From: Candidatus Eiseniibacteriota bacterium
GTDB lineage: Bacteria; Eisenbacteria; RBG-16-71-46; CAIMUX01; VGJL01
NCBI GenBank assembly: GCA_041946735.1
Contig: JBHGAY010000024.1
Coordinates: 6,114-70,113, forward strand
Length of the DNA stretch: 64,000 nucleotides
Direction: 5' to 3'
Part shown: piece by piece, positions 38,222-47,513 of the stretch
How the letters are laid out: each line of letters starts with the position of its first letter
Position numbering within the stretch: the first letter of the stretch is position 1
Translations under genes and position numbers: made by a program
The notes under the pieces: model-generated
Database searches by the model: none
Seen by the model: only the letters and a program-made list of their open reading frames with translations
What the model was told of the DNA's origin: nothing

Positions 38222-39001
38222 TCAGGGCAGAACCAGGGCCGCCGGTGGAGAGACGCGCAGGAGATCCCCGCCGGAGAGCGCCGCCACCCGGCAGAAGACG
38301 GTGGCGCCGGAGACGCCCAGACGCGCGAGACGCGCCGGGTCGAGAACCAGGCTCGTGTCCGCCGTCGTCGCCGGCCACGCGGTCTCGGCGAGCGAGTCGC
38401 CATAGAAGAGGATCCGGTAGGAGTCCGCTCCGCGTACGCTTCGCCAGGCAACGCGCACCGATCCACCGGCAATCCGCTCGAACGAAGGGGCCGGCGTGCT
38501 CGAATCGCCCGGCTCGCCGCGCAAGGCAGGCGTCGCCGGCGGGGCCGGAGAGCGCGGCTGTAGCAGCGAGCCGCCTCCCAGTTCGAGGAAGATCCCGATC
38601 ACGAGAAGCGCCGCGCCCGCGGCGAGCGCCGGCCGGAACGCGGGAACGAGAAGGCGGGCGAGCCGGCCGAGCGGCCCCGGCGGCCCCGGCGGCTCGGGCG
38701 GGCCGGACCGCCCCCGCCGGCCTGCTTCGCGCCCTTGCTCTGCGTCGCCGTCCGTCCATCCGCGCAGCGACTCCGTCACCGGCAGTCCCGCCTCCCGCCG
38801 GATCGCGCGGGACAAGCGCTCGGCCGCCTCGCGCGGCTCCGCCCCTTCCGGCACGGCCGCCGCGGGATCCAGGAAGAGCTGCAGGGAACGCCAGCGCGCC
38901 CGGCATCGCGGGCAGCCTTCGAAGTGCGCACGCGCCGGATCGGAAGCGGGAAGCCGATCGATCCGCTCGAGCGATTCGACCGGCGGGCAGATCTCGGTCA
39001 C
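38222..39001 (-). CDS. anti-sigma factor, zinc-finger (ZAS-like) N-terminus, single TM helix, periplasmic C-terminal domain
   Basis: From a GTG (GGAGG Shine-Dalgarno) giving VTEICPPVESLERIDRLPASDPARAHFEGCPRCRARW (C-x22-H-x3-C-x2-C). TM helix LAAGAALLVIGIFL. GTGA overlap with the sigma factor stop. Confidence 0.6.
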   Translation of the reverse strand: MTEICPPVESLERIDRLPASDPARAHFEGCPRCRARWRSLQLFLDPAAAVPEGAEPREAAERLSRAIRREAGLPVTESLRGWTDGDAEQGREAGRRGRSGPPEPPGPPGPLGRLARLLVPAFRPALAAGAALLVIGIFLELGGGSLLQPRSPAPPATPALRGEPGDSSTPAPSFERIAGGSVRVAWRSVRGADSYRILFYGDSLAETAWPATTADTSLVLDPARLARLGVSGATVFCRVAALSGGDLLRVSPPAALVLP

Positions 39002-39693
39002 GTTGCGCCTCCTCTTCCTTCGCCTCGCGCGCGATCGTCCGCGACACGGCGTCCGATCGGCGCCGCCGCGCCGCCGGCGTTCACGCGCCGGCCGAGCGCC
39101 GCGGCCTCGTGCTTCGCCCCGTCTTCGAGCGCCGCGCGGAGTTTCCGGCGCGCTCGCTGCAAGATCCCTCGCGCTCCCGACGCGGTGTCGATCGCGAGCA
39201 ATCGGGTGATCTCCTCGACCGGCAGCCCCTCGTAGCACCGCAGCCAGATCGCCTCGCGTTCGAGCGGATCGAGGTGCCGCCGAACGAGCGCCAGCACCGA
39301 CTCCTCGTCGAGCCTCTTCTCGAGCGTTTCGCTCGGATCGGGCGCCGGATCGGCCACGCGCTCGATCCCTTCTTCGTCCTCGTCGAACAGCGGCGAGGGC
39401 CGCCGCACGACGCTCAGGCAATGGTTGCGCGCGATCACGAAGAGCCAGGTCGCGAAGCAGCTGCGCCCTTCGTAGCCGGCGATCCCGCGGTACGCCTTCA
39501 ACAGCGAGTCCTGAGCCAGGTCGAGCGCCTGCTCGTGGTCCCGCACGATCCGGTAGCACCAGAGGTAGACACGCTCCCGGTAGCGCTCGAGGAGGACCGA
39601 GGCGGCCCGCCTCGCCTCCTCGCCCGCACGATCCTCGCGAGCGATGCAGACCAGCTCGGAGTCGTCGAGCAGCGCCAGATCTCGTTCGGTCAC
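38998..39693 (-). CDS. ECF-family RNA polymerase sigma factor
   Basis: C-terminal 231 aa of a 1273-aa track ORF: sigma-70 region 2 (LLERYRERVYLWCYRIVRDHEQALDLAQDSLLKAY) and region 4 (LDPLEREAIWLRCYEGLPVEEITRLLAIDTASGARGILQRARRKL). The start is placed at a GTG overlapping the upstream gene's TGA. Confidence 0.6.
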   Translation of the reverse strand: MTERDLALLDDSELVCIAREDRAGEEARRAASVLLERYRERVYLWCYRIVRDHEQALDLAQDSLLKAYRGIAGYEGRSCFATWLFVIARNHCLSVVRRPSPLFDEDEEGIERVADPAPDPSETLEKRLDEESVLALVRRHLDPLEREAIWLRCYEGLPVEEITRLLAIDTASGARGILQRARRKLRAALEDGAKHEAAALGRRVNAGGAAAPIGRRVADDRARGEGRGGAT

Positions 39694-42668
39694 CCCATGG
39701 GACGCTCGCTTTCTGAATCCGTCACGCGAACCGTTGCCTCCGGTCCAGGCGGCAGCGTCCGGCCCGCCGCCTCCGGCCGCTCCCCCGCCGCCGAGAATGA
39801 GCGCAACACGATGCCCAGCAGCACGAAGGCGGCGCCGCCGGCGAGGGCGAGCCGGCCCCAGGGCACAGGCCGGGCCGGTTGGATCGGGATCCGAAGGGAG
39901 CCGTCCCCCAGCACGACGAAGCCCGCCCAGAAGAACGGGTGGCGGGTGCGCGGGTCCTCGCGGATCGCCTCGCGCGCGCGCATCAGCGCGCCCGAAACCG
40001 TCGCCCCGCCGGCGAGCTCGTCGTAGAAGCATGCGGCGAAGCGTTGCGCCGCTTCGTCCTCGACCGGCCACAGGGTGGCGGCGACCGAGGAGGCGCCCGA
40101 GCAGAGGAGCGCAGTCGACAACCCCTGCATCCCCTCGCCCGAGACGATCGCCCCTCGCGCCGTGCGGCAGCACGACAGGACGGCCAGGCGTGCCGGAATG
40201 CGGGACGCGGCGATCGCCTTCGCGTGCAGCGGCCGCGCGCCGAGCGCGATCTCCGAGAGCCACGGGCGCCCGTCCTGTCCAAGCGCGTGCGCGGCGAAGT
40301 GGACGACGAGGCGCGGGGCGGCGAGATCGGCGAGGCCGAGCGTGTCGCGCGGCCCGAGGACTCGCAGATCGACCCCGCGATAGGCGCGCGCGATCCGCTT
40401 CGCCTCGCGCGCTGCGCCGGGCAGGCCGATCGTCCCTGCTTGGGGCGCGGCGACCGCCAGGATCGGTCTCGCGAGGAGCGCTTCCGCGCTGGCCGCGCTC
40501 GCGTCCGCGCCGGCCGCGCCCGCTTCCGCCGCCCGGGCTCCGGCCAGGATCGCGGGCGAGGCGATCCTCGTCCACTCGCGGTCCCGGCCGTCCCCTGCGG
40601 CATCGAACGACTCGAACGGGGCGAGGTGGGCGACGCCGTCTGCGGCGACGAGGATCCGATCGCTCTTCGCCACCCAGTCCCCCAGATCGGGGAGGAGCGC
40701 GCGGCAGAGCGCGGCGGCCGCCATCCGGCATTCGCGCACCCCGGCGCCTCGCGCGGAGTCCGGGCTCGCGAAGAGGTCGAGGACGAGCCGCACGCCCGGC
40801 TCGATCTCCCCTTCGGGAGGAAGCGAGCGGACGCAGCAGGAATCGCGCGTGAACGCGAAGAGCCAGCTCGCCCGGCCGCCGAGATGGTAGTCGAGGAGCA
40901 GCTCGCCGGGCTCGAGCGGCGGCAGGAGCGCCGACGCGGCCGCGCTGCGCGGCAACGCCGTCGCCGGCCCCGCGATCCGCTCGAGGAGCGTTCGCGCCTT
41001 GAAGACGGCGACCCGCTCGTACGCGGCGCGCACCGCGCTCGGTCCCGCCGCCTTCTCCGGATCGGCGCCGAGGAGAAGACCGGCCAGGCTCGTCGCGATG
41101 CTCCGTCCCGCGGCGCTGCGCTGTTCGCGCCACTCGGGATCGAGCGGCAGCCCGCGCTGCGCCTCCCAGACGCGAGCCGCGGCTTCGAGCGACGCGCGCG
41201 CGCTGTCCGGCCGCCCGAGATCGACGAACGCGCGCGCCAGCGCGAGGAGCGTCTCGAGCCGGACCGCATCGAGGCCCGGTCTGGCCGAGAGCCCAGCAGC
41301 GAGGCGCAGGGGCGCCAGCGCCTCCGCGGGCCGTCCCTCCTCGACACGCAGCTCGCCGAGCCGCGCTGCGAGCCTTCCTCTCTCCTCGGGACCGTCGATC
41401 TCCGCGCGCGCGAGCGCCCCTTCGAGGATTGCGATCGCCTCGGCCCTCTCCTGCGCGCTCTCGCACGTGCGGGCGAAGGCGGCGAGCGCCGCCGCCCGCG
41501 TCGCCGCCGGGGCCGGCGGATCCGCCGCGAGAATCTGACGGAAGATGCGGCGCGCCTCGCGCGTCCGGCCCTGCGACGCCCGTGTCTGCCCGAGCTGCCG
41601 TAACAGCTTCGCCCGCAGATCGCCGTATCCCTCCCGCTCGCAGATCGCGAGCATCGCCTCGAGCGAATCGCATGCCTGCTCCGGATCCCCGAGCTCCGCG
41701 GCGCAGAGGGCGAGATTCATCCCTGGGACGATCGACTCCCGCATCTCTCCGTAATCCCGATAGCTCGCCAGAGCCTCGTCGAACGCGGTCGCCGCTTTCG
41801 CCGGATCTCCGAGCCGGTACTCGAGAGTGCCGAGATTGTTGCGGGCGAGGCACGTCACCATCGGATACCGGCAGGAATCGGCGAGGACCGCCGCTCGCGC
41901 GAACTCCTCGCGCGACCGCTCGTAGGCGCCCGTTCTCCCGAGAGCCACGCCGCGCGAGTTCCGAGCCCACGCCTCGCCGCGCCGCTCCCCTCCTGCCCGG
42001 AAGAGCGCGATCGCGCGATCGAGCGTCGACGCCGCCTCCACCGCGCTGCCTCGCACGACCTGGTCCCACCCGATGCCGACGAGCGCCCAACCTTCCTGGA
42101 CGCGATCCCCGCGAAGGCGCGCGAGGACAGCAAGCGAGTCGTAGAGCGCGCGCGCCTCCTCGGTCCGTCCCTGATTGGCGACGGCGACCGAGAGCCAGCG
42201 GATCGCGACGCAGGCGGAGGCGGAATCGCCGCGTGCGCGCGCGATCGCGAGGCAACGACGGAGGATCGTCTCGCCTTCGCGCGCCGCGCCGATCGATGCG
42301 CGCAGCTCCCCCTCGCGGAGCCCGAGCCACAGCATCCGTCCCGAGTCGCCCTGCGCTTCGGCCTGCTCGCGCAGGCGCTCGATCGCGGGGAGCGCGGAGT
42401 CGGGCCGTCCGGCGAGACGGAGGCGCTCGACCCTCGCGAGATCCGGCGCGAGAGGGGTCGCAGGAGGGAGGAGCGGGCGCGGGCGCGACAACGCGCGCGA
42501 AGCCAGCGACGGCGCAGGCACCGCGGCGCAGGCGGCCCCGAAGGCGCCCGCGCAGGCGGCGGCGAACACGAGCGCGAGCGCGCAGGCGCCGCGGCGCAGC
42601 CGCAACGCTCGCTCGCCCTTCGCGATCGACCGCAGGGATCGCATGGCCGGTCGGCCGTCCAACGCCAA
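39690..42668 (-). CDS. TPR-repeat protein with C-terminal CHAT (caspase-like) domain and C-terminal TM anchor
   Basis: Signal peptide, about 500 aa of TPR-like repeats, then a CHAT domain: VVHFAAHA...LAVLSCCRTARG (His/Cys dyad), then the hydrophobic segment LALAGGAAFVLLGIVL. Confidence 0.7.
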   Translation of the reverse strand: MALDGRPAMRSLRSIAKGERALRLRRGACALALVFAAACAGAFGAACAAVPAPSLASRALSRPRPLLPPATPLAPDLARVERLRLAGRPDSALPAIERLREQAEAQGDSGRMLWLGLREGELRASIGAAREGETILRRCLAIARARGDSASACVAIRWLSVAVANQGRTEEARALYDSLAVLARLRGDRVQEGWALVGIGWDQVVRGSAVEAASTLDRAIALFRAGGERRGEAWARNSRGVALGRTGAYERSREEFARAAVLADSCRYPMVTCLARNNLGTLEYRLGDPAKAATAFDEALASYRDYGEMRESIVPGMNLALCAAELGDPEQACDSLEAMLAICEREGYGDLRAKLLRQLGQTRASQGRTREARRIFRQILAADPPAPAATRAAALAAFARTCESAQERAEAIAILEGALARAEIDGPEERGRLAARLGELRVEEGRPAEALAPLRLAAGLSARPGLDAVRLETLLALARAFVDLGRPDSARASLEAAARVWEAQRGLPLDPEWREQRSAAGRSIATSLAGLLLGADPEKAAGPSAVRAAYERVAVFKARTLLERIAGPATALPRSAAASALLPPLEPGELLLDYHLGGRASWLFAFTRDSCCVRSLPPEGEIEPGVRLVLDLFASPDSARGAGVRECRMAAAALCRALLPDLGDWVAKSDRILVAADGVAHLAPFESFDAAGDGRDREWTRIASPAILAGARAAEAGAAGADASAASAEALLARPILAVAAPQAGTIGLPGAAREAKRIARAYRGVDLRVLGPRDTLGLADLAAPRLVVHFAAHALGQDGRPWLSEIALGARPLHAKAIAASRIPARLAVLSCCRTARGAIVSGEGMQGLSTALLCSGASSVAATLWPVEDEAAQRFAACFYDELAGGATVSGALMRAREAIREDPRTRHPFFWAGFVVLGDGSLRIPIQPARPVPWGRLALAGGAAFVLLGIVLRSFSAAGERPEAAGRTLPPGPEATVRVTDSESERPMG

Positions 42669-42829
42669 AGGCCCCTCCGCGGCACGAGTGAAAACCGCGT
42701 GAACCAGTGTACGCCGGTCGGATGATTGCGCCAGCCCTCTTCCCCCGCGTCGAACTGCCTCGCCGCCGCGCCGCTGTTCCCCGGCCGCCCCGCGTCTGGT
42801 AGCTTGTCCGGTCCCCCAAGGAGGAACCG

Positions 42830-44623
42830 ATGCACGAACGGCCTGTCCTGATGGTCGTCGACGACGACAGCGAGAGTCTGCACCGCCTCTACGAGGCGCT
42901 CGACCGGCGGCTCCACGCCGACTACCGGGTCTCCGCCCACACCTCCGCAGCCGAAGCGGTCGCCGAGCTGCGCCGCATCAAGGAGCTTGGACATGCGGTC
43001 GCGCTCGTGATCGCCGATCAGTGGATGCCGGAGATGACCGGAATCGACCTGCTCGGCGAAGCGCATCTGCTCCATCCTTCGGCGCAGCGGGCGCTGCTCG
43101 TCGATTGGGGGGATCGCACCGCGTCGCCGACCATCCTGCAGGGATGCGCGCTGGGCAAGCTGGAGAACTACATCACGAAGCCCTGGTCGCCCCCCGAGGT
43201 GCACCTCTATCCGCTCGTGGACCAGTTCCTCGCCGACTGGACGCGCGCACACCGCCCACAGATGGAGCTGGTCCGGATCGTCACCGGCCATCCCTCTCCA
43301 CGCGGCCACGAAATTCGCGACCTTCTCGTGCGAAGCGGGATCCCGCACGGCTACCACCTCGTTGACTCGGAGACCGGCCATCGACTTCTCGAGCAGACCG
43401 GGCAGGACGGCTCGCGCCTCCCGCTCGTGATCCTGCTCGACGGCCACACGCTGGTCGATCCGACGAACGAGGAGATCTACGACGCGCTGGGCGCCTCGAA
43501 CATGGAGGATCGCTTCTGCGACCTGCTCGTGATCGGCGGCGGCCCGGCCGGACTCGCCGCGGCCGTTTACGGAGCGTCCGAGGGCTTGTCGACCCTCGTG
43601 GTCGAGCGCGAGGCGATCGGAGGGCAGGCGTCGACGGCCGCGCTCATCCGCAACTACCTCGGCTTCCCCGCCGGAATCAGCGGCGCCGATCTCGCGCAGC
43701 GCGCCTACAACCAGGCGTGGCTCTTCGGCGCGAAGTTCGTCTTCGCGAGAGGCGCCGTCTCGCTTCACGCGAAGGGGACGAAGAGGATCGTGACGCTTTC
43801 CGACGGCACGGAGATCACCGCCCGCGCGGTCCTGATCGCGACCGGCGCCTCCTATCGCCGGCTGAACATTCCGAGCGTCGACCGGTTCTCGGGCGCCGGC
43901 GTCTTCTACATCATCCCCTCCCGGGTCTCGCTCTTCCGCGGGCAGAACATCTACATCGCCGGCGGTGGCAACTCGGCCGGCCAGGCGGTCGTGCATCTCG
44001 CCAAGCAGGCGGACCACGTGACCTTGCTCGTGCGGGGAGACTCGCTCGAGAAGGGGATGTCCGACTATCTCGTCCAGCAGATCCGGCAGACGCCGAACGT
44101 CACGGTGCGGCTGCGGACGGAAGTGATCGGCGGCGAGGGGAACGAGACGCTCGAGCGGATCGTCCTGAGGGACCATGCGGCCGGAAAGGACGAGACGCTC
44201 GGGCTCGACGTCCTCTACGTGCTGATCGGCGCTCTCCCTCACACCGACTGGCTCGGCGCGGCGGTGCAACGCGACCGCAATGGCTTCGTCCGTACGGGCC
44301 GCGAGGTCGACACAGGCCGCGCGGCCGGCTGGCCGGCGGGGACCTGGCCGTCGAGGTTCGCCACGAGCCTTCCGGGCGTCTACGCGGTCGGCGACGTCCG
44401 GCTCGGTTCGGTCAAGCGAGTGGCTTCCGCGGTGGGCGAGGGGTCGGTCGCCGTCCAGTACATCCACGACTACCTGGACGATCCCATTTCCCTGGAGGAT
44501 GCCGGTTCGATCCTTGCCGGCGATACGGCGCGGATCGAGGGTCTCCCGACTCCGGAGCGCGTCTCGGTGGAGGCTGCAACGGCGGCGGCGAAGATGGAGG
44601 AACTGCCCCCCGGCCGGGTGTAG
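42830..44623 (+). CDS. response-regulator receiver domain fused to a thioredoxin-reductase-like FAD/NAD(P) flavoprotein lacking the CxxC redox centre
   Basis: REC: VLMVVDDDSESL...VIADQWMPEMTGIDLL...ITKPW. Flavoprotein: LLVIGGGPAGLAAAVYGASEG...IYIAGGGNSAGQAV...GVYAVGDV. At the position of the TrxR CATC motif the sequence is FYIIPSRVS, with no cysteines. Confidence 0.7.
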   Translation: MHERPVLMVVDDDSESLHRLYEALDRRLHADYRVSAHTSAAEAVAELRRIKELGHAVALVIADQWMPEMTGIDLLGEAHLLHPSAQRALLVDWGDRTASPTILQGCALGKLENYITKPWSPPEVHLYPLVDQFLADWTRAHRPQMELVRIVTGHPSPRGHEIRDLLVRSGIPHGYHLVDSETGHRLLEQTGQDGSRLPLVILLDGHTLVDPTNEEIYDALGASNMEDRFCDLLVIGGGPAGLAAAVYGASEGLSTLVVEREAIGGQASTAALIRNYLGFPAGISGADLAQRAYNQAWLFGAKFVFARGAVSLHAKGTKRIVTLSDGTEITARAVLIATGASYRRLNIPSVDRFSGAGVFYIIPSRVSLFRGQNIYIAGGGNSAGQAVVHLAKQADHVTLLVRGDSLEKGMSDYLVQQIRQTPNVTVRLRTEVIGGEGNETLERIVLRDHAAGKDETLGLDVLYVLIGALPHTDWLGAAVQRDRNGFVRTGREVDTGRAAGWPAGTWPSRFATSLPGVYAVGDVRLGSVKRVASAVGEGSVAVQYIHDYLDDPISLEDAGSILAGDTARIEGLPTPERVSVEAATAAAKMEELPPGRV

Positions 44624-44634
44624 ACTGGGCGCCA

Positions 44635-45267
44635 ATGAGCGCCCCGCTGCGACCGGAGAGTTGCCCGTGCGTGCCCACGCGCGAAAAGGGTACTCGACAC
44701 ACCCTACACGCTTTCGCGCTTCTCGGGTTCGTCGTTGTGCTCGTGCTCGCGGGCACGCCGGGCTGCTACACGCAGATCGCTCCGTCCCTGACGATTCCCC
44801 CGCCGGTCGCGGAGTCCCCTCCGGATCGGATCACCGAGGAGCAGGAGGCGGACGGAGACGGTATCGTCACCCGCTCGATCGGTCCGCTCGGCTTCACGCT
44901 TTCCGTGCAGCCGACGCGCTTCCGCGCCGGCGACCCCGTCGTCATCGAGATCACGCTCGACAACTCGAGCCCGACCTTCCCCTATGAGCGCACCTTCCCG
45001 AGCGGCTGCAACGTGGCGTTCGAGGTGCGCGACGAGGGAGGGAGGCTGATCGGGCCGTACCGTGTCTGCGACAACTACGGGAGCGAGATCGTCCTCGCCC
45101 CCGCCGAGCGCCGGATCTACCGCTACGAATACTATGGCGGCGAGCAGGGATACTTCGGCGGCGAGGGCGAGCTCGAGCCGGGCCGCTACTGGGTCACGGC
45201 CGGCTTCGTCAGCGGGTCGAGCCTGATGCCCACCGTTCCGCCCGTCGCAATCGAACTGCTGCCCTAG
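44635..45267 (+). CDS. hypothetical lipoprotein (210 aa)
   Basis: Lipobox LVLAGTPGC after a hydrophobic signal, then a beta-rich domain. No family recognised. Confidence 0.45.
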   Translation: MSAPLRPESCPCVPTREKGTRHTLHAFALLGFVVVLVLAGTPGCYTQIAPSLTIPPPVAESPPDRITEEQEADGDGIVTRSIGPLGFTLSVQPTRFRAGDPVVIEITLDNSSPTFPYERTFPSGCNVAFEVRDEGGRLIGPYRVCDNYGSEIVLAPAERRIYRYEYYGGEQGYFGGEGELEPGRYWVTAGFVSGSSLMPTVPPVAIELLP

Positions 45268-45317
45268 CTTCCGGCCCTAGCTTCCGCTCGGGCAGATTGC
45301 CCGGCTGTCCCGCCTGA

Positions 45318-45755
45318 TCAGGACGAACGATCCCGCCCGACCGCGCCAGCCCGTAGCAGCCCGATCCCGAGCAGCAGCACGGACGCCGCAAGCACGACGC
45401 CGCCCGCGTACGTGAAGCCGATCATCCCGCTCGGCGACGTCGCGTCCGGCGTGAGAACGGAGAGGAAGAATCCGAGCGGCATCAGGATCGCCGCGATCGG
45501 GATACCGTGACGTGCTACCCAGAGCCACGGGCGGCCGAGCCGCGCATGATCCACATAGCGAAGCGCGACCAGGCTCAGAACGAGTAGCACGCCGGCGTGC
45601 GCGTGCCCGGCGCGCCAGAGGTCCTGGCGAAGCGGGTTGGCCTGGTACGCCGGATCACGAATCAGAAGCGTCAGAAGGCTCGCGCCGCCGAACATGACGG
45701 TCGGCAGCACGACCAGGAGGATTCCCGCAAGGCGCCTCGACTCCCAGCTCATCGA
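45318..45755 (-). CDS. hypothetical 4-TM membrane protein
   Basis: From Met17: four hydrophobic helices (LAGILLVVLPTVMFGG...). No family recognised. Confidence 0.35.
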   Translation of the reverse strand, partial: SMSWESRRLAGILLVVLPTVMFGGASLLTLLIRDPAYQANPLRQDLWRAGHAHAGVLLVLSLVALRYVDHARLGRPWLWVARHGIPIAAILMPLGFFLSVLTPDATSPSGMIGFTYAGGVVLAASVLLLGIGLLRAGAVGRDRSS

Positions 45756-45863
45756 CGGCCCTCGCTCCGCGGCCGGCGGCGTAACGGGCGGTCGTCGTCC
45801 CATCGTCGTCGTCCTCCATCACGGCCAATCCGGATCCCGTGGTCTCCGCTGCTCGCGCACCGC

Positions 45864-46721
45864 TCAGCCGGTCGGCAGCGAGCGCGGCTTCTTCCCGCGC
45901 GGAAACGCGCGATCGATCTCCGCGATCTCCTCGGGCGACAGAACGAGATCTCCGGCGGTTGCGTTCTCCTCGACGTGCGCGGCGTTCGCCGACATCGGGA
46001 TCGTGAAGAGCGGCTCCTCACGGACGAGGAAAGCCAGCGCGACCGCCGCCGGCGTCACGCCGTGCGCCTCGCCGATCCGTCGCAGCACCCCGGCCGAAGC
46101 GCCGTCCTTCTCACCCTTCGCGCCCAGGGCGTGCCGCGCGCCGAGCGGCGTGTACCCGACGACGGCGATCCCGAGCGCGCGGCAGGCCGGGAGCAGTTCG
46201 TGCTCGATCCCGCGCTGCTCGAGATTGTACAAAACCTGATTGCACGCGATCCTGCCCGGCCCGGCGATCGCCACCGCCTCCTGCACGTCCCGCGCATCGA
46301 AGTTCGACACGCCGTAGGAGAGGATCTTCCCCTCGTTCCGCAGCTCCTCGAAGGCGCCGAGCGTCTCGCGCAGCGGGACAGAGCTGGGCCAGTGCAGCAG
46401 GTAGCAGTCGAGCCGGTCGGTCCGCAGACGCCGCAGCGAGGCCTCGCACGCGCGGCGCACGCCGTCGCGCGTGGCATTCGACGGCAAGACCTTGCTCACC
46501 AGGAACACCTCGTCGCGCCGCCCCGGAATCGCCTCGGCGATCACCTCCTCGGCGCGGCCCGATCCGTACATCTCCGCGGTGTCGAGATGCGTCATGCCCA
46601 GGTCCAGGGCGCGACGGATCGCGCGGACCGCTTCTCCACGGTCCGCCTGCTCGATCCGCCAGGTTCCCTCCCCGATCAAGGGGACGGGGACGCCGGTCGG
46701 CCCGAAGGGTCGCTTGCGCAT
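45864..46721 (-). CDS. aldo/keto reductase family oxidoreductase
   Basis: C-terminal 285 aa of the track ORF: LGMTHLDTAEMYGSGRAEEVIAEAI, catalytic tetrad context LDCYLLHWP, and IPMSANAAHVEEN. Confidence 0.8.
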   Translation of the reverse strand: MRKRPFGPTGVPVPLIGEGTWRIEQADRGEAVRAIRRALDLGMTHLDTAEMYGSGRAEEVIAEAIPGRRDEVFLVSKVLPSNATRDGVRRACEASLRRLRTDRLDCYLLHWPSSVPLRETLGAFEELRNEGKILSYGVSNFDARDVQEAVAIAGPGRIACNQVLYNLEQRGIEHELLPACRALGIAVVGYTPLGARHALGAKGEKDGASAGVLRRIGEAHGVTPAAVALAFLVREEPLFTIPMSANAAHVEENATAGDLVLSPEEIAEIDRAFPRGKKPRSLPTG

Positions 46722-46919
46722 GCCCCGCCAGTCTACGAGGATCGGGCGGCCCGGCGTCAGCGTGCGAGCGTCGGGAGGTGGGCGGGCGAGGCGGCCGAAA
46801 GCCCGGGAACATTCGCTTGGCGGCCGCGCGCCCGACGGCGATACTGGCCCGTCGGCAATCCGCGCATTCGCGCGCTCCGGTCGAGCGAGCGCCGCTTCGC
46901 CGGAGAAAGGAGACGCGAC

Positions 46920-47513
46920 GTGACGAAACGGATCCTCCTCGCCGGCCTGGCCGGCGGCATCGTTCTCTTCGTCTGGAGCAGCTTCTCGCACATGGCCCTG
47001 CCCATCGGCGAGATGGGGCTGTCGACGCTCGGCCACGAGCAGCCGGTCCTCGATGCGCTGCGCGCGAACGTGGACGCCGACGGGCTCTACTTCTATCCGC
47101 AGATGCCGCCCGGCATGGCAGGACGGAAAGCGCAGGAGCAATGGGCGCAGAAGATCCGCTCGGGACCGTCGGGACTCCTGCTGATCCACGTCGCCGGGAG
47201 CGAGCCGATGACCCCCTGGCAGATCGTGATCGAGCTGCTGACGAATCTGATCGCCTGCATCCTCGTCGCGGCCCTCCTCTGGTGGCTGCACATTCGCCCG
47301 CTCTCGGCCGGGTTCGTCGGCGCATTGCTCGGCTTCCTCGGATGGCTGAACATCAGCGCGTCGTACTGGAACTGGTACGGCTTCCCGGCCGCCTTCGTGA
47401 TCGGCGAAGGAATCGACCAGATCATCGGGTGGTTCCTCGCGGGGCTCGTGATCTCCGCCGTGCTTTGGACCGGCGCCCGCCGCTTCGCGCGCCGGGCGAC
47501 CGTGGCCGCGTGA
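46920..47513 (+). CDS. hypothetical membrane protein (197 aa)
   Basis: GTG start after AAAGGAGA. Signal/TM helix ILLAGLAGGIVLFVWS and two further TM helices near the C-terminus. Confidence 0.4.
   Translation: MTKRILLAGLAGGIVLFVWSSFSHMALPIGEMGLSTLGHEQPVLDALRANVDADGLYFYPQMPPGMAGRKAQEQWAQKIRSGPSGLLLIHVAGSEPMTPWQIVIELLTNLIACILVAALLWWLHIRPLSAGFVGALLGFLGWLNISASYWNWYGFPAAFVIGEGIDQIIGWFLAGLVISAVLWTGARRFARRATVAA

Follow-up and report, generated by a model that had tools for sequence, protein, structure and literature searches.

Response regulators with a thioredoxin reductase-like output form a catalogued class under the name TrxB, and we know of no characterised member. 'TrxB' was listed as a response-regulator output class of P2CS/P2RP (PMC9739842, PMC7694542), and Galperin et al. 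2018 described a 'Mycobacterium-like REC + thioredoxin reductase' class (PMC5847659). In the passages of these census accounts that deal with the class, the output was given as an enzymatic 'TrxB' domain, and the missing cysteines and the glutaredoxin-like middle domain described below go unmentioned. In Myxococcus, the distribution of TrxB-type regulators was patchy, and recent horizontal transfer was suggested (PMC7694542). In S. coelicolor, SCO7298 belongs to the P2CS class 'TrxB' with SCO7297 as its kinase, and polysulfide as well as acid shock were reported to induce it (PMC9952706, PMC2631018).

The window analysed here was the whole stretch of 64,000 nucleotides, in which the ORF at 42830-44623 on the plus strand was one intact gene of 597 amino acids plus the stop codon. 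The features of the gene as a whole were as follows.

42830..44623, plus strand: whole gene, very probably an orphan TrxB-type response regulator (ORF list and translation, GC3, homologs of 60-66% identity).
42818..42824, plus strand: Shine-Dalgarno sequence AAGGAGG, 5 nt upstream of the ATG, a strong ribosome-binding site as read from the sequence.
44486..44620, plus strand: C-terminal tail, residues 553-597, low-confidence and not conserved, variable or absent in homologs (pLDDT <50 for 559-597).

GC3 frame analysis gave a clear coding signature (GC3 0.88 against GC2 0.47), and the start agreed with the N-termini of homologs. Hundreds of metagenomic proteins were 60-66% identical to the 597-aa protein, and conservation, as judged by sequence comparison, was far above chance. 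No sigma-70-like promoter was found in a scan of 42400-45500. The single terminator-like site in that scan lay within the gene and was at chance level. The domain order was receiver, conserved helix, glutaredoxin-like fold, and TrxR-fold module, and the full-length predicted model had a pTM of 0.53, with uncertain inter-domain geometry. In the Pfam scan, Response_reg at residues 8-124 and Pyr_redox_2 at residues 231-538 were found in the same protein, which agreed with the preliminary description of a receiver fused to a TrxR-fold flavoprotein. PF00072 N-terminal to PF07992 in one ORF is the arrangement of the TrxB-type class, and we are highly confident that the gene is an orphan member of this family with the anatomy given here. 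The output had at first been called unusual for a response regulator, either as an output or as a sensor domain. It proved less unusual than that; the combination of REC with a TrxR-like module is already catalogued and is not new, and at least 581 species genomes contained relatives, spread over many phyla, including Acidobacteriota, Myxococcota, Pseudomonadota, Actinomycetota, Chloroflexota, and others. The distribution was patchy, with 6/41 relatives in the genomes searched. The same genome carried a second copy, a paralog of 41% identity with the same architecture, which kept the receiver Thr. The best overall explanation is probably that the protein is an orphan TrxB-type regulator that may act as a receiver-gated NAD(P)H/FAD oxidoreductase on a non-disulfide acceptor, to which we assign a probability of about 0.6.

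We focused on the flavoprotein module, which comprised the following features.

43511..44485, plus strand: TrxR-fold FAD/NAD(P)H module, residues 228-552 (Pyr_redox_2, TIGR01292, PDB 4zn0, Foldseek AhpF/TrxR).
43535..43552, plus strand: FAD-binding GxGxxG (GGGPAG, residues 236-241), with G236, G238, and G241 in 85/85 family members.
43898..43927, plus strand: segment at the TrxR redox-disulfide site, GVFY-IIPS-RV, residues 357-366, without Cys (alignments to the TrxR of the same genome and to 4zn0).
43961..43981, plus strand: NAD(P)H-binding GGGNSAG, residues 378-384, with G378 and N381 in 85/85 and G384 in 84/85.

The Pyr_redox_2 (PF07992) match scored 101.7 bits, the match to PDB 4zn0 had an E value of 3.4e-45, and Foldseek matched AhpF and TrxR at E about 1e-28. 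The dinucleotide motifs GGGPAG, GGQ (residues 264-266, 85/85), ATG, GGGNSAG, and GD were all present and invariant or nearly so. In the 85-member set GxGxxG, GGQ, ATG, GD, and GGGNSAG were classed as invariant together with R402, Y413, and R530, and M410, S411, and Y360 were near-invariant (84/85 each). Since the FAD and NAD(P)H motifs were invariant, the module fits a flavoprotein, and it would be expected to bind flavin; the FAD/NAD(P) Rossmann pair recognised at first reading thus stood. The HRRxxxR motif of TrxR was reduced to VRG, and R402, the sole Arg left, was invariant in the family.

The redox-active site gave a different result from that of TrxR. IIPS was aligned to CATC of the canonical TrxR of the same genome and to CAIC of 4zn0, and the equivalent window was free of Cys in 83/85 family members. 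The 597-aa protein contained only two cysteines, C106 and C230. Both were invariant among 25 close homologs; as conserved cysteines they were rejected by the 85-sequence set, in which they occurred in 44% and 39% of members, and no alignment column was Cys in more than 44%. Because no Cys column was conserved and the window lacked Cys in 83/85, classical dithiol-disulfide chemistry was excluded, and because C106 and C230 were not conserved, displaced redox cysteines were excluded as well. The preliminary description had proposed that the CxxC was lost and that the protein was not a disulfide reductase, and both proposals held up in the 85-member comparison; its further idea of a signalling flavoprotein gives the protein a putative role.

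The module was preceded by a helix and a middle domain.

43193..43261, plus strand: receiver helix alpha5 and connector, residues 122-144, with conserved L134 and W137 (helix 122-141 in both models).
43262..43504, plus strand: Cys-less glutaredoxin/GST-N-like thioredoxin fold, residues 145-225, with SPRG for CxxC and P198 as the cis-Pro candidate.

L134 and W137 were two of the five invariant columns in the 56-sequence alignment of the N-terminal half. The middle domain matched glutaredoxin 2lqo by profile (E 3.5e-4, residues 6-78 of the 92-residue chain) and GST N-domains at E 3.4e-3 and 2.2e-2. Its predicted strand-helix order was b-a-b-a-b-b-a with pLDDT of about 90, so that the profile matches and the predicted secondary structure both indicated a glutaredoxin-like fold with a cis-Pro before beta3. 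P198 was present in 84/85 and R158 in 80/85 family members. SPRG was aligned to CGYC of 2lqo, and neither CxxC nor CxxS was present at this site; residues 146-170 were free of Cys, and in the family the SPRG window lacked Cys in 70/85 members and had two in none. An Atlas feature search with residues 143-226 returned 'GST N-terminal domain' with a score of 0.79, which is taken as a lead only. The glutaredoxin-like domain was followed by the Pyr_redox_2 module in 41/51 database proteins scanned, several of the others being short entries, and REC was detected in 17/51 and cNMP_binding in none; these 51 were drawn from the best 150 representatives for the middle-domain profile, a list biased to REC-type members, so that variants with a cNMP-binding input may still occur. 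The region had been noted as a linker domain. It was a Cys-less glutaredoxin-like fold.

The receiver domain was examined in the same way.

42842..43204, plus strand: receiver (REC), residues 5-125 (PF00072), with D11/D12, D63, and K117 present and Y114 conserved.
43016..43018, plus strand: codon of D63, the predicted phospho-acceptor Asp in DQWMP, aligned to the DQRMP/DMRMP acceptors.
43100..43102, plus strand: codon of V91, the receiver Thr/Ser switch position, aligned to T of HupR and S of 2rjn.

The Response_reg match scored 33.0 bits against a cut-off of 30.2. In a VIA-align search, the predicted N-terminal model showed the CheY-like fold with Z 19.6 and rmsd 3.0 over 135 residues aligned to 2rjn, and many other receivers scored Z >15. 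The acidic pocket D11/D12/D13 together with D63 and K117 was present, as had been read for the Asp pocket from the start. D63 was aligned to the acceptor Asp in DQRMP of HupR 2jk1 and in DMRMP of 2rjn, and the 2vuh variant of HupR carried EQRMP at this position. At the end of beta4, V91 took the place of the conserved Thr/Ser switch residue. The preliminary description had missed this Val.

The mechanism that follows from these features is a tentative one, and we would give a receiver-gated, non-thiol oxidoreductase somewhat less than even odds on the sequence evidence. The 597-aa protein would bind FAD and oxidise NAD(P)H. Since no dithiol relay is possible, the flavin would hand electrons straight to an acceptor other than a disulfide, for which O2, a quinone, sulfane sulfur, and a small redox protein are candidates. 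D63 would be phosphorylated by an unlinked kinase or a small phosphodonor, which would set the state of the receiver. This state might be relayed via alpha5 and the glutaredoxin-like adaptor, and the relayed signal would gate the domain arrangement or the dimer of the flavoprotein module. Several observations stood against this reading, namely the lack of a kinase on the contig, the lack of conserved neighbours, Val at the switch position, the frequent loss of the acceptor Asp in a sister clade, and the uncertain inter-domain geometry of the model, and only one Arg was left of the NADPH-specific HRRxxxR motif.

The receiver also bears on the opposite direction of signalling. The flavoprotein module could sense O2, the cellular redox state, or the ratio of NAD(P)H to NAD(P)+, with an atypical receiver that is independent of phosphorylation or that serves as a phosphate sink or adaptor, available or not according to the state of the flavin. 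We consider this unlikely but worth weighing. The gene is an orphan without conserved context. It sits in a 37-member clade in which the pocket was kept and position 91 was V in 37/37, compared with T in 4/4 kinase-linked paralogs, so that canonical phospho-switching may be impaired. In a sister clade of Actinomycetota and Chloroflexota the acceptor Asp was often lost with the flavoprotein motifs still invariant, which suggested that the flavoprotein can work without phosphorylation. HupR, which is active when unphosphorylated, was among the closest solved receivers. However, Asp was found at position 63 in 36/37 members of the target clade, and D11/D12/D63/K117 were kept in 34/37, which points to selection for the binding of a phosphoryl group or Mg2+. 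A receiver at the N-terminus with an enzyme behind it is also the usual order of input and output, and kinase-linked paralogs exist.

The protein could instead be a TrxR-type ferredoxin/flavodoxin-NAD(P)+ reductase under two-component control, YumC-like, which reduces a small iron-sulfur or flavin protein. The solved TrxR-fold proteins without CxxC are such FNRs, and 3ab1, 2zbw, and 3lzw matched at E 2.4e-22, 4.6e-22, and 4.2e-16. The aromatic residue at the CxxC site (Y360, aromatic in 84/85) is in line with this. However, true TrxR and AhpF were much closer matches of the module (E 3e-45 to 1e-35). FNRs have a conserved C-terminal region, whereas the C-terminal tail of the 597-aa protein was not conserved. 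Among the upstream neighbours, none of the 25 most frequent Pfam families was a ferredoxin or flavodoxin family, and we regard this assignment as improbable.

Genomic context was analysed with respect to partners and kinases. No kinase was found on the gene's own contig (C17) with an HK query. ORFs of 92 loci were clustered by all-against-all BLAST and Pfam was run on 78 upstream neighbours, and no recurring neighbour was found; downstream neighbours were compared by the BLAST clustering, and the Pfam tally refers to upstream neighbours. HATPase_c and cNMP_binding occurred upstream only at three kinase-linked paralog loci. The downstream 210-aa ORF, which starts 11 nt past the stop codon, was considered as a partner, but it had no counterpart in the other loci compared and is not regarded as one. 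The paralog on contig C19 and a kinase gene with cNMP_binding, HATPase_c, and a weak HisKA match overlapped by 4 nt, and all four kinase-adjacent family copies found formed one clade. This overlap and the single clade of kinase-adjacent copies indicated that the family is wired into real two-component systems. The search for a cognate histidine kinase, suggested at the outset, yielded a candidate next to the paralog.

The C19 cNMP-binding histidine kinase might also serve the orphan copy, which would then be a second output of cyclic-nucleotide signalling. No other kinase in the genome was linked to a family member, and the two regulators share their architecture and 41% identity. This is a long shot, however, for several reasons. 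Genome G005 (99% complete) has a 60%-identical ortholog of the 597-aa protein without the paralog, and it gave no full-length match to the cNMP kinase but catalytic-domain matches only. Receiver helix alpha1, which carries most of the pairing specificity, differed between the clades, and receiver identity was only 37%. The branch between the orphan clade and the kinase-linked paralog clade had an SH-aLRT support of 100%.

A conventional thioredoxin or disulfide reductase with displaced redox cysteines, as implied by the database name of the homologs and by TIGR01292 as the best NCBIfam match, is virtually untenable, since that match reached 206.9 bits under a cut-off of 343.45, another gene of the genome encodes a canonical TrxR with CATC, and the two poorly conserved cysteines left no conserved Cys column in 85 members, which refuted it at the sequence level.

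These results have a bearing on annotation. The family is routinely named 'thioredoxin reductase (NADPH)' in databases, although it is by sequence incapable of the classical reaction, and S. coelicolor work counts a family member as trxB3. A corrected annotation is important wherever thiol-redox systems are inventoried. Once found, the role of a kinase-controlled, Cys-less TrxR-fold flavoprotein would extend two-component signalling by an enzymatic output. The kinase-linked copy with a canonical receiver and the orphan copy with the pocket but no Thr switch residue offer a natural comparison within one genome. A bolder proposal, which we consider doubtful, is that the Cys-less glutaredoxin-like domain and the TrxR-like module form an enzyme whose chemistry would be new to the TrxR fold, namely a NAD(P)H/FAD oxidoreductase that is gated by the signal and uses a small molecule as acceptor (for example sulfane sulfur/polysulfide, a quinone, or O2, in the last case with controlled formation of H2O2). 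The glutaredoxin-like domain, with Ser in place of Cys, would then be a substrate- or thiol-binding site, and the Thr-to-Val receiver of the orphan clade would switch in a non-canonical manner. If this were true, the 'TrxB' class would be a new kind of enzymatic two-component output.

The locus was compared with the known systems. With the glutaredoxin/NrdH/GST N-terminal fold (2lqo, 3tot), the middle domain shared the b-a-b-a-b-b-a order and the conserved cis-Pro position P198. However, glutaredoxins carry C-x-x-C, whereas the middle domain carried S-P-R-G and, so far as the proteins scanned show, occurs only fused to the Cys-less TrxR-like module. The TrxR-type ferredoxin-NADP+ reductases (YumC-like; 3lzw, 2zbw, 3ab1) also have the TrxR fold without a redox disulfide. 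They transfer electrons directly from flavin to acceptor and are single-module proteins without regulatory domains, and their matches were weaker (E 1e-16 to 1e-22) than those of TrxR and AhpF. AhpF (4xvg, 1hyu) ranked first among the full-length Foldseek matches (E 1.4e-28 over 558 aligned columns), and in both proteins a thioredoxin-fold N-terminal domain stands ahead of the TrxR-like module. AhpF has CxxC in its N-terminal domain and in the TrxR module and passes electrons to AhpC, whereas the 597-aa protein has neither centre, and the receiver stands where AhpF has its first Trx fold. Its TIGR03140 score was 167.8 bits against a cut-off of 502.9, and no N-terminal CxxC was present. Low-Mr NADPH-thioredoxin reductase (TrxB, TIGR01292; 4zn0, 7jyp, 1tde) was the best match in sequence (E 3.4e-45) and fold (Foldseek ~1e-28). 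The two have in common the two-Rossmann FAD/NADPH fold and the GxGxxG, GGQ, ATG, GGGNSA, and GD motifs. Unlike TrxB, the 597-aa protein had IIPS in place of CxxC, one Arg of HRRxxxR, a score under the family cut-off, and about 225 extra N-terminal residues that form the REC and glutaredoxin-like domains. The TrxB-type response regulators had the same architecture, REC followed by a TrxB-like flavoprotein module, and a patchy distribution too. Within this class the 597-aa protein fell in an orphan subclade whose receivers have Val at the Thr/Ser position. The architecture itself is known, and it is the orphan, Val-switch clade that sets this copy apart.

The target gene (42830-44623, plus strand) was one uninterrupted frame of 597 codons, and it carried the features that the preliminary description had placed there. 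The Pfam scan proposed in that description found Response_reg and Pyr_redox_2, the latter at residues 231-538. The FAD/NAD(P) Rossmann pair was borne out, and residues 228-552 retained GGGPAG, GGQ, ATG, GGGNSAG and GD. The closest solved relatives were true thioredoxin reductases (TrxRs) and AhpF (for example 4zn0, E 3.4e-45). The best NCBIfam model was the TrxR equivalog TIGR01292, with 206.9 bits, below its cut-off of 343.45. Homologous genes were called in 85 loci and aligned. G236, G238, G241, G264, G265, Q266, G339, G378, N381, R402, Y413 and R530 were found in 85/85 members, and D522, M410, S411, G384 and Y360 in 84/85. The cofactor sites of the family are thus subject to strong purifying selection.

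The CAIC/CATC motif of TrxR lay opposite I-I-P-S in the target (GVFY-IIPS-RV) in the HMMER alignment to 4zn0 and in that to the TrxR of its own genome. This confirmed that a stretch first read as FYIIPSRVS replaces CATC. The CxxC-equivalent window was Cys-free in 83/85 members. The glutaredoxin active-site window had no Cys in 70/85 and two Cys in none. A conserved Cys column was sought in the 85-member alignment and none was found, with no column above 44% Cys. The only two cysteines of the target, C106 and C230, were shared by 44% and 39% of members, and the displaced redox cysteines that would have contradicted the preliminary description were absent. Dithiol chemistry, displaced cysteines included, is thus excluded across the family. 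This agreed with the earlier view that the target looks like a signalling flavoprotein and not a disulfide reductase. The same genome encoded a canonical TrxR with CATC on contig C5 (L003:1453-2391). It also encoded a second TrxR-like protein without CxxC (C20:66520-67494; L004:1459-2487), which was 342 aa long, had EILPD at that site and had no N-terminal domains.

The region described as a linker was indeed a separate middle region, but not a mere linker. In the AlphaFold model, residues 145-225 had the strand-helix order b-a-b-a-b-b-a. Their profile matched the solved glutaredoxin 2lqo (E 3.5e-4, its residues 6-78 of a 92-residue chain) and GST N-terminal domains (E 3.4e-3 and 2.2e-2). The CGYC of 2lqo lay opposite S-P-R-G/S, and P198, at the cis-Pro position, was kept in 84/85 relatives. 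From the profile matches and the secondary-structure order, the domain is predicted to be a glutaredoxin-like fold without its cysteines. Its profile alone gave 1066 clusters (50% identity) at E <= 1e-10. Pyr_redox_2 followed in 41/51 scanned clusters, several of the remainder being short entries, and REC was detectable in 17/51.

The receiver with an intact Asp pocket was upheld. Response_reg matched residues 8-124 with 33.0 bits (cut-off 30.2). The AlphaFold model of residues 1-228 was built on 56 sequences and had a mean pLDDT of 90.3. Residues 1-148 gave Z 19.6 to 2rjn (rmsd 3.0, 135 aligned), and dozens more solved receivers gave Z >15. D11/D12/D13, D63 (within DQWMP), Y114 and K117 were present. 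V91 occupied the conserved Thr/Ser switch position at the end of β4, opposite T of HupR and S of the REC-HD protein 2rjn. Helix α5 (residues 122-141) was among the best conserved parts. Only five columns of the N-terminal half were invariant, and L134 and W137 of this helix accounted for two of them. The receiver signatures tracked the family tree.

Receiver signatures by clade: Thr/Ser position; acceptor pocket DD/D/K
Kinase-linked clade, n=4: Thr in 4/4; kept in 4/4
Target clade, n=37: Val in 37/37; kept in 34/37
Remaining copies, chiefly from the sister clade of Actinomycetota/Chloroflexota, n=44: 36/44 with Ile or Val; frequent loss of the acceptor Asp (A, G, E, S)

The target belonged to a 37-member clade (100% SH-aLRT) of orphan genes from Gram-negative phyla. 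Its sister was a 39-member clade, chiefly of Actinomycetota and Chloroflexota, whose receivers looked like repeated decay towards pseudo-receivers. Many sister-clade loci among L046-L092 had A, G, E or S where the phospho-acceptor Asp belongs, and sometimes the Lys was gone too. Their FAD- and NAD(P)H-binding motifs were invariant. In the 85-member tree, phyla were mixed, a pattern pointing to horizontal transfer or to errors in MAG binning. Rubrobacteraceae L021 stood among Thermoanaerobaculia, and Eremiobacterota L032 amid Thiobacillaceae and other betaproteobacteria. The target clustered with Acidobacteriota, not with its same-family relative L006.

The family was sometimes kinase-linked. 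The target's genome carried one such pair:

C19:11420-14577 (L002:2-3153), paralog and upstream kinase gene, the paralog start overlapping the kinase stop by 4 nt

The paralog (554 aa, 41% identity to the target) also lacked Cys at the CxxC site, and its receiver had the canonical Thr-Ala after β4. The kinase contained cNMP_binding, HATPase_c and a weak HisKA match, and its type was single-copy in this genome. Four family members lay next to a kinase gene, in this genome and in three relatives, and they formed one clade (100% SH-aLRT; n=4 only). A histidine-kinase query gave 42 matches across the assembly, and none of the 42 was on the target's contig. The C19 kinase is probably not the partner of the target. 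A 99% complete relative's genome (G005) has a 60%-identical target ortholog but neither a C19-type paralog nor a full-length homolog of the kinase. Receiver helix α1 also differed between the two clades, and receiver identity was merely 37%.

We propose that the target binds FAD and NAD(P)H and that flavin electrons would pass directly to a non-disulfide acceptor, because there is no dithiol relay. The receiver state would be set by D63 phosphorylation, with an unlinked kinase or a small phosphodonor as the phosphoryl source, and relayed via α5 and the glutaredoxin-like adaptor to the flavoprotein module. In the main rival reading, sensing would fall to the flavoprotein, and the atypical receiver would work without canonical phospho-switching. 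The orphan status, the Thr-to-Val change and the receiver decay in the sister clade lean that way, but the pocket kept across most of the target clade speaks for a continued role of phosphoryl or Mg2+ binding. FNR-like activity is a less well-supported possibility, because the FNR matches were much weaker than those to TrxR and AhpF. A conventional TrxR function was excluded at the sequence level.

The reading frame and the neighbourhood were also analyzed. The GC contents at codon positions 1/2/3 of the target were 0.72/0.47/0.88. A sliding frame plot favoured its strand and frame over long antisense ORFs, which occurred because the genome is 70% GC. A Shine-Dalgarno AAGGAGG lay 5 nt 5' of the ATG, and the N-terminus could be aligned to homologs from the first residues on. 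The tail (residues 553-597) was without conservation and had low model confidence. The neighbours were:

38225-39001, minus, 259-aa ORF without Pfam match, start overlapping the sigma stop
39001-39693, minus, ECF-type sigma factor gene (Sigma70_r2 + r4), start overlapping the CHAT stop
39690-42668, minus, TPR-CHAT gene, upstream of the target and divergent
44635-45267, plus, 210-aa ORF, BsuPI-like putative lipoprotein, start 11 nt past the target stop
45867-46721, minus, aldo-keto reductase (PF00248, E 3e-61), downstream
46920-47513, plus, separate 197-aa ORF without Pfam match, preceding the efflux operon

A long plus-strand ORF (45597-47513) was rejected as a single gene by frame-specific GC3, which gave the last two entries. 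The 210-aa ORF began with a lipoprotein-like hydrophobic segment ending in AGTPGC. It matched BsuPI (intracellular proteinase inhibitor) weakly, with 22.5 bits, just below the 22.9 cut-off, and had no counterpart in any other family locus compared. The string 38225-42668 did not occur upstream of the other family members compared, and neither TPR-CHAT, sigma, BsuPI-like nor aldo-keto reductase genes recurred beside relatives.

A word-indexed search gave at least 8000 candidates. The best 120 of these were ~550-600 aa long with 60-66% identity, and bore the name 'thioredoxin reductase (NADPH)' or 'FAD-dependent oxidoreductase'. When one genome per species was scanned, at least 581 relatives were confirmed, and the phyla among the matches listed were Acidobacteriota, Myxococcota, Pseudomonadota, Armatimonadota, Actinomycetota, Chloroflexota, Gemmatimonadota and others. 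The whole family carries the wrong annotation 'thioredoxin reductase'. The output was not as unusual as the preliminary description had it. The preliminary interpretation was supported with two corrections, the identity of the linker and the output class already being known. Of further, modest interest, the target comes from an orphan clade whose receiver lacks the Thr, and its genome also has a canonical kinase-linked paralog.

The output belongs to a known, catalogued, uncharacterised class, and the architecture is not new. Galperin et al. (PMC5847659) catalogue it as 'REC + thioredoxin reductase'. P2CS/P2RP lists 'TrxB' among its output classes, one example being SCO7298 with its kinase SCO7297 (PMC9739842). 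The class is present in 4/11 Myxococcus/Pyxidicoccus genomes, with horizontal acquisition suggested (PMC7694542). No functional study of any TrxB-type response regulator was found in the literature. SCO7298, treated as 'trxB3' and classed as 'TrxB' by P2CS, was reported to be induced by polysulfide (PMC9952706). Its induction by acid shock was also reported (PMC2631018). Among known systems, intact AhpF was the top Foldseek match of the full-length target model (E 1.4e-28, 558 aligned columns), and it likewise has a thioredoxin-fold domain N-terminal to a TrxR-like module.
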